A stretch of 57,430 nucleotides of DNA from a virus. Lineage: Duplodnaviria > Caudoviricetes. The stretch covers positions 1-57,430 of the IMG/VR virus record IMGVR_UViG_3300047557_002126. The stretch is one strand, 5' to 3'. The notes under the pieces were generated by a model that saw only the letters and a list, made by a program, of their open reading frames with translations, was not told the DNA's origin and did no database searches. Shown one piece after another: positions 1,278 to 57,430 of the stretch. The position numbers were made by a program, and so were the translations under genes. Each line of letters opens with the position of its first letter. The stretch's first letter is position 1.

Positions 1278-1517
1278 TCAGTGCTGTATTCCAGTGAGTT
1301 GCCAGATAGATGCATGGTAAAACAATTCCAAATGCAACACAATGACCAAGGTGATCATGGCCAGCCGACCATTAACACGCTCTGCATACCAGAGTATGTC
1401 GTTTGGATTTGTTGGAAACTTCCAAAACTTTAAATCCACACAATTCTCAAAGATTGCTACAAAAATCCAAGAGGTACAATGCCAGAGATCTTCAAACCAC
1501 CTGAGAATTTTTTCCAT
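1278..1517 (-). CDS. hli: high-light inducible protein (Hli/HLIP)
   Basis: Chlorophyll-binding motif AERVNGRLAM followed by a hydrophobic helix. Confidence 0.9.
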   Translation of the reverse strand: MEKILRWFEDLWHCTSWIFVAIFENCVDLKFWKFPTNPNDILWYAERVNGRLAMITLVIVLHLELFYHASIWQLTGIQH

Positions 1518-2949: not shown

Positions 2950-5567
2950 CGAGCAAGCAACAAATGTCTTTAAAACCTGGAGAAATTCGCCTTGATTACA
3001 TTCCGCTGGATTGGCCGCTCACGCCACTGTCTGCCAATAAAGACCCATATGTTGTTGGTTGGCAAGGTAAACCGTACAGCGTCCGAGATATCGAAGAAGA
3101 AATCCTCACTGGTCGCTGTAAAGCCATTGGCCTGCTCGGTGGTCCTGTCTATAACAATCCCTATGGTTTGGTTTGGGTTGACGTTGACGGCCCAACCGTC
3201 TACCAACTCATTGAAGAAATCTCCGGTACAACATTTGATAACGCACTTCCCAATACCCTGACCATTCGTAGCGGTAAAGAAGGGCGCGAACGCAAGCTCT
3301 ACAAATTAGATAAAGAAAAACACAAACATTTTGTACGGAATAAATACACTTGGCATGCTGAAGGCAACAAAGAAAAGCTTGAGATCCTTTGGTCTAAACA
3401 CCAGGGTGTGTTAATGGGTTTACATCCGGAAACGGATGGTTACTTTACAGCTGAAGGCCAAGGGTTTGAGTGGGTGCAAGAGCTGCCTGAGTTCCCTGAA
3501 TGGCTGCTGTCCTGCATCATCAATAAAAATGTAAAGCAAGGGATTCCGGCCAAAGAAACAACCCGTGTTGTGGGCCAGGGATTTGCCATCAATTCAGTCA
3601 TTGGGCTTGAGCGCGACATCAAACTGGCGCGTGAAGCGATGTGGGGTATGCCCCCAGAGGCAGCAGATGATTACGACATCTGGATTGTTGTTGGACAATC
3701 TCTTCATTCATTGGACGAATCACTGCTCGATGATTGGGATGAATGGTCTAAGCAATCTGAAAAATATAGGGATGGTGAATGTCACAGGCGTTGGCTTTCC
3801 TTTAGTAAAGGTGGTGGCCGCAGCATTGGTTCACTCATCCATACCGCAAAAGAAAACGGCTGGCAACCATCGGAAGATTACAAAGCAATGAACGTTGACG
3901 ATGACACATTGGAGCACGTGTCTCAAATGCTGACTGAAATTGAAAACGACATCAAAACAACCTTTGTTTCATCCTTAGCAAAACCTTTGATTGCTCCAAC
4001 GGAAGGTAAACGCACTAGGACGCGAACTAAAAAAGAAGGGGAGGAGAAAGAGCAAAAACCGCGCAACCCACCTTCCAGTGAAATTGCAGACCTTCTCCTT
4101 GGAAATTACGCAGGCAACTTACTGTACAGCCAACAGCATGGTCAATTTTTCATGTATCAAAAAGAAGCGCCCGGTCTTTGGTCGCCCATGACAAAAGTTG
4201 AAGTGCTTGGTGATATTCGCATGCGCTTGCAAAGCATGGGTGACTTTCTGCCAAAGGGATTCACCTCTAATTTGATGAACGATATCTTTATTCAACTTCA
4301 GGCAACACTTGTATTTAACGATTGGTATGACGGAAGTAATTACCTTCTGTTTACCAACGGTGTGTTGGAGGTTGATACCAGGACATTGCTTCCGTTTAGC
4401 CGTGATAAATACATCACGCAGCAAATGCCATATGACTATGACCAGGCTGCCACCTGTGAACCCATCATCAAATGGCTAAAGCATACCCAACATGGAAGCT
4501 GGGAACGTGCTCAAGTTCTGCGTGCATGGCTGCGTGCAACACTGCTTGGCTGCTATGACATTCAGAAGTTTATTGAAATTGTTGGCCCAGGTAAGTCGGG
4601 TAAATCGACCTACGCAAACCTGGCAGTAGCACTGGTTGGTAAACAGAACACCTATTCGACAGATTTTGAAAACCTGGAGAAAAACCGTTTTGAAGCTGCA
4701 AGCTACATGGGTAAAAAGCTTCTGCTGTTCCAGGACGCTGATCGTTGGGGCGGTTCTGTTTCCAAGCTGAAAGCTATTACGGGTAACGACTGGATTCGTA
4801 GTGAACGTAAATATCAATCCGAAGGACAAGATCCATTCCAGTATCACGGGATGGTAATGATCACGGCCAACGAAGCTATCCAATCAACTGACTACACCTC
4901 AGGTCTTGCCCGTCGCCGTCTCACTGTTCCGTTCGATCGTCCATTTGAAGGTGGTCAAGCAGAGCAAAAAGAACTGATTAAGTTTGATCCCAAGGGGCGG
5001 CCTCAGGGTGTGTTTGCGCCATTGCTTCCAGGGCTTGTGAACTGGTTGCTGGATATGTCCACAGAAGAGATGCGCTCTTACCTAATGGAAACTAGCAAAC
5101 GTGTCAACTTTTTCCAGAAGTACGAAAAGATGCAAAGCCTGCGTTCCAACCCGCTGCTTGACTGGATGGAGCACAAACTTGTCTTTGATCCAGGGGCATC
5201 AACACCTGTTGGTTTCTGTAAATCAATCGCTGGTGGTTCTAATTTTTATGTGAACTGGAACCAGTGGTTGTATGCAAGTTATGCAGAATTCTGCCGTAGC
5301 TGCAATGTTGGTATCATGTCTCGCGGTCGATTTGAACCCCTTTTCCTTGACATCTGCAAACACCAATTAAAACTCAATGTGTTTGCCAAAAAGAACAGCA
5401 AGGGGATGCGGATCTTTAACGTTGTGGTTCGGGATTCAAACCCTAAATACGATCCGTATCCTTCAATTGTTGAAGTGTCAGCAGATAAAGAAAAATATTC
5501 GGAATTTTATGGAATGGTCTTAGATGAACCTACTAATGAGAAAATGGAAGCTGATGCGGAAATGTAG
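2946..5567 (+). CDS. primase-helicase (Prim-Pol + PriCT-2 + D5/P4-type SF3 helicase)
   Basis: N-terminal VDVD Prim-Pol motif; YDIWIVVGQSLH...WDEWS...KY (PriCT-2); FTNGVL (D5_N); Walker A GPGKSGKST; ITAN motif C. Confidence 0.93.
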   Translation: MTSKQQMSLKPGEIRLDYIPLDWPLTPLSANKDPYVVGWQGKPYSVRDIEEEILTGRCKAIGLLGGPVYNNPYGLVWVDVDGPTVYQLIEEISGTTFDNALPNTLTIRSGKEGRERKLYKLDKEKHKHFVRNKYTWHAEGNKEKLEILWSKHQGVLMGLHPETDGYFTAEGQGFEWVQELPEFPEWLLSCIINKNVKQGIPAKETTRVVGQGFAINSVIGLERDIKLAREAMWGMPPEAADDYDIWIVVGQSLHSLDESLLDDWDEWSKQSEKYRDGECHRRWLSFSKGGGRSIGSLIHTAKENGWQPSEDYKAMNVDDDTLEHVSQMLTEIENDIKTTFVSSLAKPLIAPTEGKRTRTRTKKEGEEKEQKPRNPPSSEIADLLLGNYAGNLLYSQQHGQFFMYQKEAPGLWSPMTKVEVLGDIRMRLQSMGDFLPKGFTSNLMNDIFIQLQATLVFNDWYDGSNYLLFTNGVLEVDTRTLLPFSRDKYITQQMPYDYDQAATCEPIIKWLKHTQHGSWERAQVLRAWLRATLLGCYDIQKFIEIVGPGKSGKSTYANLAVALVGKQNTYSTDFENLEKNRFEAASYMGKKLLLFQDADRWGGSVSKLKAITGNDWIRSERKYQSEGQDPFQYHGMVMITANEAIQSTDYTSGLARRRLTVPFDRPFEGGQAEQKELIKFDPKGRPQGVFAPLLPGLVNWLLDMSTEEMRSYLMETSKRVNFFQKYEKMQSLRSNPLLDWMEHKLVFDPGASTPVGFCKSIAGGSNFYVNWNQWLYASYAEFCRSCNVGIMSRGRFEPLFLDICKHQLKLNVFAKKNSKGMRIFNVVVRDSNPKYDPYPSIVEVSADKEKYSEFYGMVLDEPTNEKMEADAEM

Positions 5568-5926
5568 TGAGCAATGGTCGGCACCTGATCCTTGATCTGT
5601 ACGATTGCGATCCAGGGATCCTTGATGATTATGAGGAGCTTCAACGTTTGCTTGAAGCTTCTCTTGTTATGGCTAAAGCCAACATCCTCAGGATTATTGG
5701 TGAAAAATTTAATCCTCAAGGTGTGACCCTGCTTGCACTACTAGCCGAATCCCACGCATCTATTCACACATGGCCCGAGATTGGCTATGCAGCAGTTGAT
5801 CTGTATACATGTGGCGACAAAACAGAAACCCATAAGGCTGCAGAGTTTCTGAAAACAAAACTAAAGGCTGGAATTACCGAACAGAAAGAGTTAAAGCGTT
5901 CTGTTACTCCACAAGTTTCTGTATAG
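5567..5926 (+). CDS. speD: S-adenosylmethionine decarboxylase proenzyme (pyruvoyl, class 1b)
   Basis: GRHLILDLY, F.PQGVT, LAE|SHASIHTWPE self-cleavage site, D.YTCG. Confidence 0.92.
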   Translation: MSNGRHLILDLYDCDPGILDDYEELQRLLEASLVMAKANILRIIGEKFNPQGVTLLALLAESHASIHTWPEIGYAAVDLYTCGDKTETHKAAEFLKTKLKAGITEQKELKRSVTPQVSV

Positions 5927-7282: not shown

Positions 7283-7548
7283 TGAGACGCAAGTTGAGAC
7301 GTGAGACTACCAGGTGTCTCATTTGTGTCTCAGATGATGGGGTAAATGAGACTGAGACTGGGGAAAAAGGCCTGTTGTAAGGGGTGAGGTCGGACTTTAC
7401 CGATTCAACAGGGTTTTTAACCCTACGTAGACGTGCATGACATTTTGGGGTCGTTTTGTAATTATGAGCTGGTGGCGGTGGGCAAAAGGGGTGGGTATAG
7501 TCGGAATCTTGGAATCTCGTCAATCTTGCGGTGAGAAAACACTGAGAC
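7283..7548. repeat. cluster of TGAGAC/GTCTCA hexamers (iteron-like)
   Basis: Forward copies at 7283, 7295, 7302, 7347, 7353 and 7543; reverse copies at 7316 and 7327. Confidence 0.8.
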
Positions 7549-54785: not shown

Positions 54786-54811
54786 TCAATAATTAAAACA
54801 GAATAACCGAC

Positions 54812-54852
54812 GCGCGATTTTGTCTAAATTCTTGGGCAAAGTCGTGTTTTTA
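54812..54852 (+). terminator. probable terminator
   Basis: GCGATTTTGTCTAA/TTGGGCAAAGTCGT stem with G-U pairs, followed by TTTTT. Confidence 0.5.
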
Positions 54853-55447
54853 ATGACATTTTTGTGATTTTAGCAAATTTTAGAAAATGTAATTTTTGCT
54901 AAAAAGTTATTTGCGCATTACTTGTATAGTCGGATAGTAACCTGCGACATTTCTGGGTATATTTCACTTTTACAAATTTATATTTTGGTGTTATTCCAGG
55001 GTTTAATTACACGTTTTTTCTGCGGCAACGTGAGGTTTTGACCCTCAAAATGCTGTTGGCTACTCGATTCTTCTCCACCCACCCACCCGAGAGGGAATAC
55101 GGGAAGAAAAAAAGAAAGGGGGTGGTGGTAACAATTATAGTAGCAGCGCGAGCGTGAGTGAAGCCTGCTGCGATTGAAGGTTAGTTTAAGTTACCTGACT
55201 ACGTTTATATGTAGTATAAGCGTAGAGGAACTGTCATAATGCGTAGATTAACCTACGCTATAATCCCTAACCTTCCATTATATCCTAGGCTAGCTCGCGG
55301 GAGATGGGAGAAAGAAGACAGTTGTAATTGAGAATTATATGTTGAGAGATTGAAGGTATGTAATTGAAGAAGATGAAGATTGTGTAACAAGTGATCGGGG
55401 GCTGCGCATCCGTAACACGCAGATGTTCCACTACTCAGCTCAACACA

Positions 55448-55627
55448 ATGGTCATTAGCTGCACTTATGTAACTGATGAAGCTGTCTACGAGTTCCAGGT
55501 GAACAAGACAGAAGATTGCGCTCGTGTAACTAAGTGGGTCCGTAAGGGCGCACGTGGTTATGACAAGAGCACAAGCATGACTGTTTCAATGGCACGCAAG
55601 TTGGCCAAGCAACTTGTTAATAGCTGA
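55448..55627 (+). CDS. early hypothetical protein
   Basis: ATG after a CAACACA leader. Confidence 0.65.
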   Translation: MVISCTYVTDEAVYEFQVNKTEDCARVTKWVRKGARGYDKSTSMTVSMARKLAKQLVNS

Positions 55628-55695
55628 TCCGTATAAGCGGGACCCAGGGTGCAAACCCCTGGGCAGTAATTGCCTCCAGCGGAGATAGGCACCGC
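55623..55695 (+). ncRNA. early intergenic structured element, copy 1
   Basis: CCG-TATAAG-CGG; CCCAGGG-TGCAAAC-CCCTGGG; ATTGCCT...AGGCA. Confidence 0.6.
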
Positions 55696-55711
55696 ACCAC
55701 AGCACAACACC

Positions 55712-55876
55712 ATGGCTGTACGTAAGACCATTGCTCAGCAACTCTCCAAAGCTGCTAAGGCTCTGGAGAATGATAAGAGCAAGGAGAAGCTTGGCGTTGC
55801 AATGTTTACTGCAAGGGTTGCATTGGCGAATGCCATCATGCCCAAGCAATTCAACATGCCGACCAGGAAGAACTGA
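55712..55876 (+). CDS. early hypothetical protein
   Basis: ATG after ACAACACC. Confidence 0.65.
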   Translation: MAVRKTIAQQLSKAAKALENDKSKEKLGVAMFTARVALANAIMPKQFNMPTRKN

Positions 55877-55886
55877 TCCATTTACT

Positions 55887-55953
55887 GCTGAGTACCAAGC
55901 GTGATGCTGGGGATCGAATCCCCACTCAGCTATTGCCAGCCGCCAAGGCTGGC
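55887..55953 (+). ncRNA. early intergenic structured element, copy 2
   Basis: GCTGAG/CTCAGC closing stem; TGGGG-ATCGAAT-CCCCA; TATT then GCCAGCC/GGCTGGC. Confidence 0.6.
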
Positions 55954-55967
55954 CTACATCACAACAC

Positions 55968-56150
55968 ATGCGTACTTTCTTCATCTCCTTCAGCACTGCG
56001 ATGACTGCTGGCATGATGCTTATTGCTCCAACCATTGCTCATCACTTGCATGAGGCAACTCTCAAGCAATGTGTAATGCATGATTGGCCAGCGCACCAGG
56101 CTGAAGCACACCTCAAGTTCTGCGCTGATTACGTCAAGCAGAACGGCTAA
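55968..56150 (+). CDS. early small protein with N-terminal hydrophobic segment
   Basis: QC..HDWP..Q...H..FC pattern. Confidence 0.7.
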   Translation: MRTFFISFSTAMTAGMMLIAPTIAHHLHEATLKQCVMHDWPAHQAEAHLKFCADYVKQNG

Positions 56151-56213
56151 TTCGTCAAAGCGAGTGGCAGGGTGCAAACCCCTGCCTAGCTATTGCCACA
56201 CACTGAGTGTGGC
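56145..56213 (+). ncRNA. early intergenic structured element, copy 3
   Basis: TCG-TCAAAG-CGA; GGCAGGG-TGCAAAC-CCCTGCC; TATT then GCCACAC/GTGTGGC. Confidence 0.6.
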
Positions 56214-56224
56214 TACCTATCAAA

Positions 56225-56305
56225 ATGCTTACTATCTTTGCATTGATCGTGGCTGCACCCTTCGTACTCGACTATATCGAGAAGAAGGGTAAGACACGTA
56301 AGTGA
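56225..56305 (+). CDS. 26-aa membrane micropeptide MLTIFALIVAAPFVLDYIEKKGKTRK
   Basis: Translated by hand; lies after element copy 3, as the other early genes follow theirs. Confidence 0.5.
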   Translation: MLTIFALIVAAPFVLDYIEKKGKTRK

Positions 56306-56341
56306 TCTTGTCTAATCATCTGTTCAACTACAACTCAATCC

Positions 56342-56569
56342 ATGTTTATCTATCAACCTTTCATCAACTCAGGCGACCGTGTCGCTTGGTATGGCGGTGA
56401 GTCCACACAACTGCACTACGAAGTACAGGTGGATGGACACGATGGCAATCCTGATTGGATTGAACGTGGTGTCCGTACACTAGGCGGTGGCATACCAGTA
56501 GGTATGTCCGAGCTACATGCAGAGCTTGTGGACTACTACAACTACTGCCAAACCACTGACGGTATCTGA
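56342..56569 (+). CDS. early hypothetical protein
   Basis: ORF track; C/A-rich leader. Confidence 0.7.
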   Translation: MFIYQPFINSGDRVAWYGGESTQLHYEVQVDGHDGNPDWIERGVRTLGGGIPVGMSELHAELVDYYNYCQTTDGI

Positions 56570-56571
56570 TC

Positions 56572-56772
56572 ATGAAGAACGAACTATTCCAAGTCAATCT
56601 CGCTGTCATGATGGGCATTGGTATTGGTGCATTGCTTTGTGTCTTCGGACAGAAGGCAATTAATGCATACAGTATCCGTACATGCCCATCGAAACCAGAC
56701 CATGTGCTGGTTCGTATGACCAACAGTTTTGTGGGCGACGCAGTTTATTGTGTCGAACGCAAGTATGTTTGA
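56572..56772 (+). CDS. early small membrane protein
   Basis: TM segment then C...GD..YC. Confidence 0.7.
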   Translation: MKNELFQVNLAVMMGIGIGALLCVFGQKAINAYSIRTCPSKPDHVLVRMTNSFVGDAVYCVERKYV

Positions 56773-56839
56773 TTCTTGCACGAAGGGCCTACGGGCCTTT
56801 CCTGCAGGATTCACTCCTGCATTCAATGTCAACGCAACC

Positions 56840-57040
56840 ATGAAACATGTTGTTAAGCTTGGTGCCAAGCAGTACGTAACACTTGATTCTTACGGTGGGT
56901 CTTATGAGACTCGACGCAAGGAACAAGTCATCGTGCTGATCCTTGGCATCCTTGTTGCTGCACTCAGCATTGGCGCACTGATGGGCGCTGACATCACTCA
57001 ATTCGAACCTCAACTCACCAATGGGCAACCTCGCAATTGA
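56840..57040 (+). CDS. early small membrane protein
   Basis: ATG after CGCAACC; one TM segment. Confidence 0.65.
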   Translation: MKHVVKLGAKQYVTLDSYGGSYETRRKEQVIVLILGILVAALSIGALMGADITQFEPQLTNGQPRN

Positions 57041-57347
57041 AACTGCTCTGATCGAAGAACGTATTGAGACACTCAGGCAGAAACTACTGGAGAACTACAA
57101 GTCTCAGTACCACAAGACACAAGTGGATTTTAACCTGGTCAAAGGCAAGAAGTATTACAAGCTTGTCCTGATGGATCCAGGTGCCTCTGTCCACTGCTTC
57201 ATCAGTCGTCAGACTGGTGCCGTATACAAGCCAGCTACATGGCAAAGACCAGCGGCCCATGCACGGTACAACTTGTTGGATGACATCTCATTTGCTGAGT
57301 GTCTACGCCGTGCTGACTGGGCTGGAAATTATTTGTATTTGAGGTAA
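57021..57347 (+). CDS. conserved cyanophage early protein
   Basis: GKKYYK...VHCF....G.VYKPA.W..PA.H.RY.L...ADW.G.YLY pattern. Confidence 0.8.
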   Translation: MGNLAIETALIEERIETLRQKLLENYKSQYHKTQVDFNLVKGKKYYKLVLMDPGASVHCFISRQTGAVYKPATWQRPAAHARYNLLDDISFAECLRRADWAGNYLYLR

Positions 57348-57349
57348 CT

Positions 57350-57430
57350 ATGAACTCTCCTTACCAGAAACGAATGAATAAGCTTCGTGAAGCATTTGGA
57401 AACAAGTGCATTAAATGCGGAGCTAAAGAC
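57350..57430 (+). CDS. probable HNH endonuclease, N terminus only (truncated by window)
   Basis: GAGG SD; MNSPYQKRMNKLREAFGNKCIKCG with a CxxC pair. Confidence 0.55.
   Translation, partial: MNSPYQKRMNKLREAFGNKCIKCGAKD

Follow-up and report, generated by a model that had tools for sequence, protein, structure and literature searches.

Arrays of a two-part, tRNA-like RNA element between the early genes of S-EIVl-like cyanophages, a candidate signal for transcript processing

Between the early genes of phage T7 lie RNase III sites, long double-stranded hairpins with an internal loop and about two helical turns, and the cut leaves a stabilising hairpin on the upstream messenger RNA (mRNA). Mimics of transfer RNA (tRNA) are found elsewhere: the tRNA-like domain of transfer-messenger RNA (tmRNA) and mascRNA, at the 3' end of MALAT1, keep the acceptor stem, the T-arm and the elbow without a working anticodon arm, and mascRNA sets an RNA 3' end via RNase P and RNase Z. 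Closest to the case presented here are the t-elements of plant mitochondria, which direct RNase Z and RNase P cuts forming mRNA ends (PMC1920247), and the tandem hammerheads that flank single prophage genes and have been proposed to process long phage transcripts (PMC3088659). Here we analyse a complete virus record of IMG/VR (IMGVR_UViG_3300047557_002126; 57,430 nucleotides (nt), linear, estimated 73% complete), called the window hereafter, in which three consecutive spacers of the early operon carry an RNA element composed of two modules, the first of which appears to be a minimal tRNA mimic. These elements belong to a large, real and conserved phage RNA family that was previously undescribed. 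We put at about one in two the probability that they mark sites at which tRNA-maturation nucleases of the host process the transcript, most plausibly through an RNase Z-type cut after the closing stem of the mimic. The family is new; the principle is already known from mitochondrial t-elements and phage hammerhead arrays.

Like t-elements and mitochondrial tRNA punctuation, the elements place a tRNA-like acceptor stem and T-arm in long transcripts beside protein genes. Unlike them, they come from a bacterial phage, measure about 45 nt, have no anticodon arm, form arrays after nearly every early gene and are fused to a second module that serves as a 5' untranslated region (UTR); their cleavage is a proposal. 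With the tandem hammerheads of prophages and phages they share structured RNAs flanking single genes, same-strand arrays and a proposed cutting of transcripts (PMC3088659), but the elements of the window have no hammerhead core and would need a trans-acting enzyme. Compared with tmRNA and mascRNA, also tRNA mimics without a working anticodon arm, they lack CCA and a tag reading frame and are unrelated in sequence. They resemble the T7 sites as repeated structures between the genes of an early operon; however, their longest stack is mostly 12 base pairs (bp) and bears a T-loop and an elbow, which is not the T7 type of hairpin.

The early plus-strand run of small open reading frames (ORFs) starts downstream of an AT-rich non-coding stretch, and the three elements stand at the start of this run. 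The only named relative of the window, Synechococcus phage S-EIVl (KJ410740), matches it exactly at the three spacers (3 pieces, 78.5% identity). The original prediction, made from the letters of the window, had given these spacers one common architecture: a closing stem (P1), a short segment that forms a hairpin in copies 1 and 3 (P2, D-like), a GC stem with a 7-nt T-loop-like loop (P3, T-arm), the word ATTGCC opening a further hairpin (P4), and a C/A-rich leader without Shine-Dalgarno sequence before the next ATG. All five features are present in the three spacers, as listed below in window positions; bit scores are those of R1, a covariance model built from the three copies on this architecture.

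55621..55694, plus strand: copy 1, type A tRNA-like 5' module with beta-type 3' module (R1 84.0 bits)
55623-26 / 55664-67, plus strand: P1 of copy 1, holding the stop TGA 55625-27
55629-32 / 55637-40, plus strand: D-like hairpin (P2) of copy 1
55643-49 / 55657-63, plus strand: T-arm (P3) of copy 1, loop 55650-56
55669-74, plus strand: ATTGCC of copy 1
55672-75 / 55687-90 (S1) and 55679-82 / 55692-95 (S2), plus strand: beta pseudoknot of copy 1; S2 runs one base beyond the end of the part at 55694
55696..55714, plus strand: C/A-rich leader and ATG (55712) of the second cistron; the leader word (family D3) recurs before three ATGs
55874..55876, plus strand: stop codon at which cistron 2 ends, 11 nt ahead of P1 in copy 2 and in frame with TGA 55889-91
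55885..55957, plus strand: copy 2, type B tRNA-like module with alpha-type hairpin (R1 76.9 bits)
55887-93 / 55924-30, plus strand: acceptor-like P1 of copy 2, with the in-frame TGA 55889-91 inside
55913-19, plus strand: T-arm loop of copy 2
55935-41 / 55947-53, plus strand: P4 of copy 2
55954..55970, plus strand: C/A-rich leader and ATG (55968) of the third cistron
56144..56217, plus strand: copy 3, type A tRNA-like module with alpha-type hairpin (R1 93.3 bits)
56145-49 / 56187-91, plus strand: P1 of copy 3, holding the stop TAA 56148-50
56152-55 / 56160-63, plus strand: D-like hairpin of copy 3
56166-72 / 56180-86, plus strand: T-arm (P3) of copy 3, loop 56173-79
56195-201 / 56207-13, plus strand: P4 of copy 3
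56214..56227, plus strand: leader and ATG (56225) of the fourth cistron (26 amino acids)

Two points of this architecture can be made more precise. The last hairpin, expected to be paired in every copy, is so in copies 2 and 3 (P4), but in copy 1 it is replaced by two interleaved helices, i.e. a pseudoknot. The overlap of the closing stem with the upstream stop codon stands, as predicted, for copies 1 and 3; the ORF upstream of copy 2 ends before the stem, and it is a second in-frame TGA that falls inside P1. The folding energies of copies 2 and 3 are clearly distinct from those of shuffled sequences (z = -3.93 and z = -3.21 respectively).

A covariance-model search of the genome and of cyanophage contigs, proposed along with the original prediction, set the three window copies clear of background and returned two copies in S-EIVl and more than 300 in IMG/VR. 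With filters off, R1 was run on the window plus L003, the locus of S-EIVl (65,880 nt, both strands). The window copies reached 76.9-93.3 bits and the next best match in the window 11.9 bits (E 0.45); the 57-kb contig holds only these three copies. The syntenic copies of S-EIVl, L003:4000-4073 and 4294-4367 (KJ410740 43429-43502 and 43723-43796), scored 66.7 and 83.4 bits. S-EIVl is the only named phage with matches, and its whole genome contains just these 2. A loose pattern scan of the IMG/VR viral contigs gave at least 119 matching stretches, in which R1 found at least 104 matches in the first 80 loci and at least 64 in the other 39; another 162 matches came from 75 loci retrieved with a pattern of the 3' module. 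Because the retrieval patterns had been taken from the window, the census over-represents the type A and beta forms described below. In the first 173 matches, from 70 sources, all copies of a locus lie on one strand, with up to 7 copies per locus and a median spacing of 275 nt. We read the element as a punctuation element typical of S-EIVl-like cyanophage contigs. A scan of prokaryotes (one genome per bacterial or archaeal species) returned 5 loci, with true elements only in a short contig of a metagenome-assembled genome (L199) and a partial one in L200; no cellular origin of the elements was found at this sampling.

Homologs were compared over 89 distinct sequences. Paired cells amount to 91.5%, against 69.8% in shuffles and 31-48% in controls with slid pairing, and 18 of the 22 pairs show changes on both sides; covariation, whose absence had been named in advance among the signs against a function, is therefore present. 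Compensatory changes relative to S-EIVl occur in P1, P3 and P4 (copy 1 against L003:4000-4073, copy 3 against L003:4294-4367). G-U pairs are common on the strand of the element, which indicates that the constraint acts on RNA. A pseudoknot between the T-loop and AUUGCC was considered and dropped: in S-EIVl the G of this word changes jointly with its P4 partner, and it was for this reason assigned to P4.

That the element belongs to no named family also agrees with the searches. At gathering thresholds, Rfam 15 matched neither the window nor any of 14 related loci; at loose E-values (window, E up to 10; 9 related loci) the elements had chance-level matches only and none to tRNA or tmRNA. The weak local match of the queA RNA (RF03093) to copy 3, which covers the AAGCGAG word and the 3' strand of P4 (22.1 bits, E 0.31), was rejected as an identity because it lies far below the gathering score of 52.6 and has no counterpart in the 9 related loci at E up to 5; the main text of the source paper of RF03093 does not discuss queA. 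ARAGORN called 0 genes in the window and, among 120 related loci, no element and no tmRNA. In these 120 loci it did find 10 real tRNA genes (9 tRNA-Leu(UAA), 1 tRNA-Met). The tRNA-Leu(UAA) gene is on the strand of the array and several kb off (L014:8178-8253, L034, L064, L075, L078, L110, L127, L128 and L180); it is absent from the window, itself only 73% complete. The elements are not described in the publications searched, although a mention in the S-EIV1 genome paper or in supplements is still possible.

The 5' module has the proportions of the acceptor arm and T-arm of a tRNA. Of 144 elements, 91 have a P1-P3 stack of 12 bp and 136 one of 11-13 bp (overall range 10-16 bp); the split between P1 and P3 is 5+7, 6+6 or 7+5, and in 133 elements no base separates P3 from the P1 3' strand. 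The acceptor/T-arm stack of tRNA has the same length, about 12 bp. Among 210 distinct elements the 7-nt loops are UGCAAAC (93), AUCGAAU (26), UGCAAUC (15), AUCAAAU (11), UUCGAUU (6) and others; the T-loop pattern, N-K-C-R-A-N-N, covers nearly all of them. P1 and P3 are joined by a linker of 8 to 26 nt that exists in three types unrelated in sequence: type A, a 3-4 bp hairpin with AAG just before its 3' strand (copies 1 and 3); type B, that of copy 2, with relatives in other loci; and type C, of 8 nt only, associated with a canonical T-arm word. The t-element word GGTTCRANYCC (PMC1920247) is found in type C relatives; copy 2 is one position off, and copies 1 and 3 have another loop.

In sequences aligned to the model, the last loop base of the D-like hairpin and position 3 of the T-like loop form G-C 152 times and A-U 6 times, whereas G-U and A-C are not seen (0 each). 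The preceding base of the D-like hairpin varies with position 2 of the T-like loop, being G when that position is U and A or C when that position is G. In tRNA, the elbow is held by the contacts G19-C56 and G18-psi55 between D-loop and T-loop, and the covariation observed here follows the same logic. Since only about three lineages contribute the six A-U cases, the support from tertiary covariation is real but thin. A stacked acceptor/T-arm minihelix, the T-loop pattern and the D/T-loop pairs are thus all found, while neither anticodon arm nor full cloverleaf is seen in the elements of the window or of the 120 related loci. As far as sequence comparison can tell, the 5' module is a minimal tRNA mimic made of an acceptor-like P1, a T-arm P3 and a D-like hairpin that docks on it to form the elbow, in agreement with the elbow mimic without anticodon arm first proposed from the three window copies.

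P1 is followed by an unpaired A, by UU and by GCC, which opens the 3' module. This module exists as a 7-bp hairpin (alpha, copies 2 and 3), a 5-bp hairpin (gamma) or two interleaved 4-bp helices (beta, copy 1). For the beta pseudoknot, 34 distinct sequences from the unbiased first scan have 99.6% of cells paired, against 32-43% in slid controls, and 5 of the 8 pairs change on both sides. The leaders that follow alpha and gamma modules contain 4% G and a Shine-Dalgarno-like 4-mer in only 6 of 67 cases; the C/A-rich leaders without Shine-Dalgarno sequence, described at the outset for the window copies, are indeed there. Behind 45 of 67 beta modules the context matches a small hairpin that pairs the AUG or GUG start with sequence beside GGAG. 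This start-codon hairpin (AUG with CAU, GUG with CAC) covaries and is seen in many loci, e.g. L043:11598 and L051:3095; it looks like a closed ribosome-binding site needing opening. An AUG inside the beta module was dropped as a true start, as about half of the copies have AUA there.

The two modules are independent and combine freely: A+beta (65), B+beta (31), A+alpha (30), A+gamma (19), B+alpha (10) and C+beta (5). A single upstream ORF family (motif HDWP...C) precedes five combinations in different contigs (A+alpha, A+gamma, B+alpha, B+beta and A+beta). The 3' module is the 5' UTR of the next gene. A tRNA-like module stands ahead of 131 of 156 distinct beta modules, and about 5 more have one with an imperfect P1. 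Beta modules also occur alone in a 5' UTR, right after a conserved hairpin whose sequence is shared by the first cistron of the window, and without upstream ORF, in L124 and L142, and a type C module is found in a 5' UTR without upstream ORF in L179. The GC-rich viral contig L172 contains four beta-type modules (736, 1054, 1290 and 2144), each with a plain GC hairpin, TGA at the foot, in place of the tRNA-like module ahead of it; hence the beta pseudoknot has a wider distribution than the tRNA mimic.

The upstream stop codon falls in the 5' strand of P1, and its position is strongly constrained. An upstream ORF of at least 25 codons ends nearby in 141 of 152 distinct elements (stop TGA 108, TAA 28, TAG 5). 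In 91 of these the last base of the stop is exactly at model position 7, in 10 it is one position earlier (6), and the remaining 40 end elsewhere. The middle base of the stop belongs to a P1 pair that alternates between G-C and A-U, corresponding to UGA or UAA. Copies 1 and 3 of the window obey the position-7 rule and copy 2 has its stop 11 nt earlier.

Hammerhead motifs provide an independent view of these spacers. We scanned all loci (1.76 Mb, window included) for complete type II cores with three helices, a hammerhead being defined by CUGANGA and GAAA around the helices and by an NUH cleavage site, and found 11 motifs, of which 9 are in array-carrying contigs (about seven distinct, two pairs being identical or nearly so). 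These nine are the following.

L016:5561-5621: type II hammerhead motif
L016:7425-7498 (7427-7500 in the Rfam match): type II hammerhead motif
L136:4009-4069: type II hammerhead motif
L155:2207-2273: type II hammerhead motif
L163:11883-11953: type II hammerhead motif
L151, 107-179, minus strand: type II hammerhead motif
L173, 2864-2921, minus strand: type II hammerhead motif
L194, 976-1042 and 4156-4213, minus strand: type II hammerhead motifs

All nine share the operon and the strand of an array. Upstream of each is an open frame of 82-120 codons, and its stop codon either touches or overlaps the motif or precedes it by a few nt; a short leader and an ATG come after most of the motifs. In L136 the hammerhead directly precedes a linker and beta module otherwise found behind the tRNA-like module. 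The second motif of L016 stands one slot past the last tRNA-like element, with the stop overlapping its first bases and a beta-type module and ATG downstream. Thus, on the basis of these motif calls, hammerheads appear sometimes to occupy equivalent intergenic slots in related contigs. Two further type II hammerhead motifs, 220 nt apart, are present in the unrelated viral contig L079, which has no R1 matches (about 1215-1266 and 1435-1486, minus strand); each lies between a stop codon and a start codon with a Shine-Dalgarno sequence.

Among the functions put forward in the original prediction, processing is the best supported, with a mechanism that we infer as follows. Host tRNA-maturation nucleases would take the 5' module for a tRNA precursor and divide the polycistronic early transcript into single-gene pieces. 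The likeliest cut would be of RNase Z type, just 3' of P1 past the unpaired A, and RNase P or RNase E may join. The upstream mRNA would retain its stop and end in a compact tRNA-like cap, and the downstream mRNA would start 2-3 nt before a stable structure (P4). RNase Z cleaves at the discriminator base or beside it (PMC1920247), a position with which the conserved A-UU agrees. A cut by RNase P 5' of P1 would remove the upstream stop, so that a cut on the 3' side fits better; only a cut just 3' of P1 would leave the upstream mRNA its stop, and the hammerhead, too, cuts downstream of the stop. The type II hammerhead motifs in equivalent slots lend indirect support to the processing or stabilisation of each cistron, as put forward in the original prediction.

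Several observations weigh against this reading. P4 begins only 2-3 nt past the proposed cut, which may hinder RNase Z. Any participation of RNase P on the 5' side would cost the upstream mRNA its stop codon; in plant mitochondria some RNase P cuts do fall upstream of the annotated stop, and removal of the stop is tolerated at nad6 and ccmC (PMC1920247). No RNA nuclease, RNA ligase or CCA-adding enzyme was recognised by Pfam among the 20 large ORFs of the window, and the processing model therefore relies wholly on host enzymes. The folding energy of copy 1 is not distinct (z = -0.26; 76 of 200 shuffles fold as well), so that its support comes from covariation and not from folding energy. The hammerheads are motif calls; the sole one scored by Rfam, the second motif of L016, is below threshold (30.3 bits versus a gathering score of 37, in the loose scan of 9 related loci), and the 1.76 Mb scan found no hammerhead core in the window. 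Finally, the tight placement of the stop in P1 is unexplained by pure processing and hints at a link with translation or the terminating ribosome.

The elements could alternatively act uncut, as stabilisers or insulators: a structured spacer would deny single-stranded RNA to RNase E and exonucleases and isolate the folding of neighbouring cistrons. The spacer is nearly all base-paired and, with the stop inside P1, leaves no naked RNA; moreover, a beta module is found by itself in the 5' UTRs of L124 and L142. But a plain hairpin would suffice for this role, and the stack held at 12 bp, the loop of T-loop pattern and the covariation at the elbow argue that a tRNA shape is recognised, while the hammerhead motifs in equivalent slots are self-cleaving. 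We consider this explanation unlikely.

The constraint on the stop codon suggests another role, as a translation device. A ribosome terminating in P1 would unfold the mimic, and the mimic or its refolding would retain the ribosome or pass it on to the next start codon (coupling or re-initiation), or the mimic would contact the ribosomal sites that bind the tRNA elbow. The fixed end of the stop (91 of 141, and 10 one base earlier) and the retention of U-R-A while the P1 pair covaries between G-C and A-U speak for such a link, as do the absence of Shine-Dalgarno sequences from most leaders and the start-codon hairpin next to GGAG in the context of 45 of 67 beta modules. However, 40 of 141 upstream ORFs end elsewhere, the stop and the start are about 85-95 nt apart, the type C module of the L179 5' UTR has no ORF upstream, and the hammerheads of equivalent slots overlap stops too, so that the overlap may merely reflect tight packing. 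A role limited to translation thus seems to us decidedly unlikely.

The shared slot also raises the possibility that the tRNA-like module cleaves itself, as a new ribozyme that can be exchanged for the hammerhead. Several ribozyme classes were discovered by searching beside known ribozymes, and some unpaired bases of the module are highly conserved, namely the A that follows P1, those of the loop and those of the A-UU linker. Yet its linker of 8-26 nt and three unrelated types displays no visible common catalytic core, and the conserved features are those of the tRNA shape, which makes the idea highly improbable. In a more specific form, also very doubtful, the elbow module would be a self-cleaving class built on a T-loop scaffold and swapped with hammerheads for the cutting of early transcripts; we count with it, at the same low standing, a milder variant in which the stop in P1 lets the terminating ribosome gate folding, making cleavage by host tRNA nucleases dependent on translation.

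Free combination of the modules, with the HDWP...C family in front of five combinations, and the fact that the element brings its own stop codon would suit recombination boundaries, i.e. repeats that let early-gene cassettes shuffle between co-infecting phages. In T4-type phages, promoter-stem-loop cassettes (PeSL) have an early promoter inside each repeat. Within 55400-57430 of the window, a scan that is blind to phage-specific promoters found no sigma-70-like promoter on the plus strand, and the elements do not show this feature of PeSL cassettes. Strand-specific G-U pairs and compensatory changes reveal selection on the RNA fold and not on DNA identity alone, and shuffling may be a by-product of the repeats; as a primary function it has very little likelihood. 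The least probable of all, despite the tRNA-like elbow and the early-operon location, are the decoy or sponge for a tRNA-targeting defence or a tRNA-modifying enzyme, unlikely against anticodon nucleases as the anticodon arm is absent, and the put-like antiterminator on RNA polymerase, against which argue the lack of any terminator-like site found on the plus strand of 55400-57430 and a copy number, one after nearly every small gene, that exceeds the needs of put-type control; both had been offered in the original prediction.

If processing by host enzymes is true, a widespread freshwater cyanophage lineage would cut its early operon via the host tRNA-maturation machinery, bringing to phages, where RNase III sites or self-cleaving ribozymes were previously known, a mitochondrial strategy. 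The family offers a compact natural mimic of the tRNA shape (about 45 nt) in more than 200 distinct variants, a test bed for the substrate requirements of RNase Z and RNase P, and portable, combinable intergenic parts, namely a proposed cleavage module and a 5' UTR module. The catalogue of phage RNAs gains an undescribed family and a small covarying pseudoknot. Because S-EIVl is cultured and carries two copies, the question is directly testable.

Other parts of the window complete the description of the operon. Its head is the following feature.

55397..55451, plus strand: 5' UTR of the first cistron, with a G-run and hairpin (55397-55422), then the C/A-rich leader word and ATG 55449

The sequence of the 55397-55422 hairpin recurs at array heads in L041, L124 and L179, and its folding energy is not significant (z = 0.86). 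We tentatively take 55397-55451 as the probable 5' end of the early operon transcript. Upstream, 54800-55390 is the AT-rich non-coding region that separates the divergent late and early gene blocks; it contains an inverted repeat (54868-54904) and GATTGAAGGT words repeated at 55172 and 55348, and is probably a control region. The next long spacer of the operon, 56773-56822, has no tRNA-like module but a strong fold of two hairpins, nested or side by side (z = -4.97, equalled by 0 of 200 shuffles); a C/A-rich leader runs from it to ATG 56841, and the spacer may hold another kind of intergenic module. Far from the array, at 5567-5926 (plus strand), the window encodes an S-adenosylmethionine decarboxylase (Pfam PF02675, E 1.6e-35) adjoining primase-helicase and glycosyltransferase genes.

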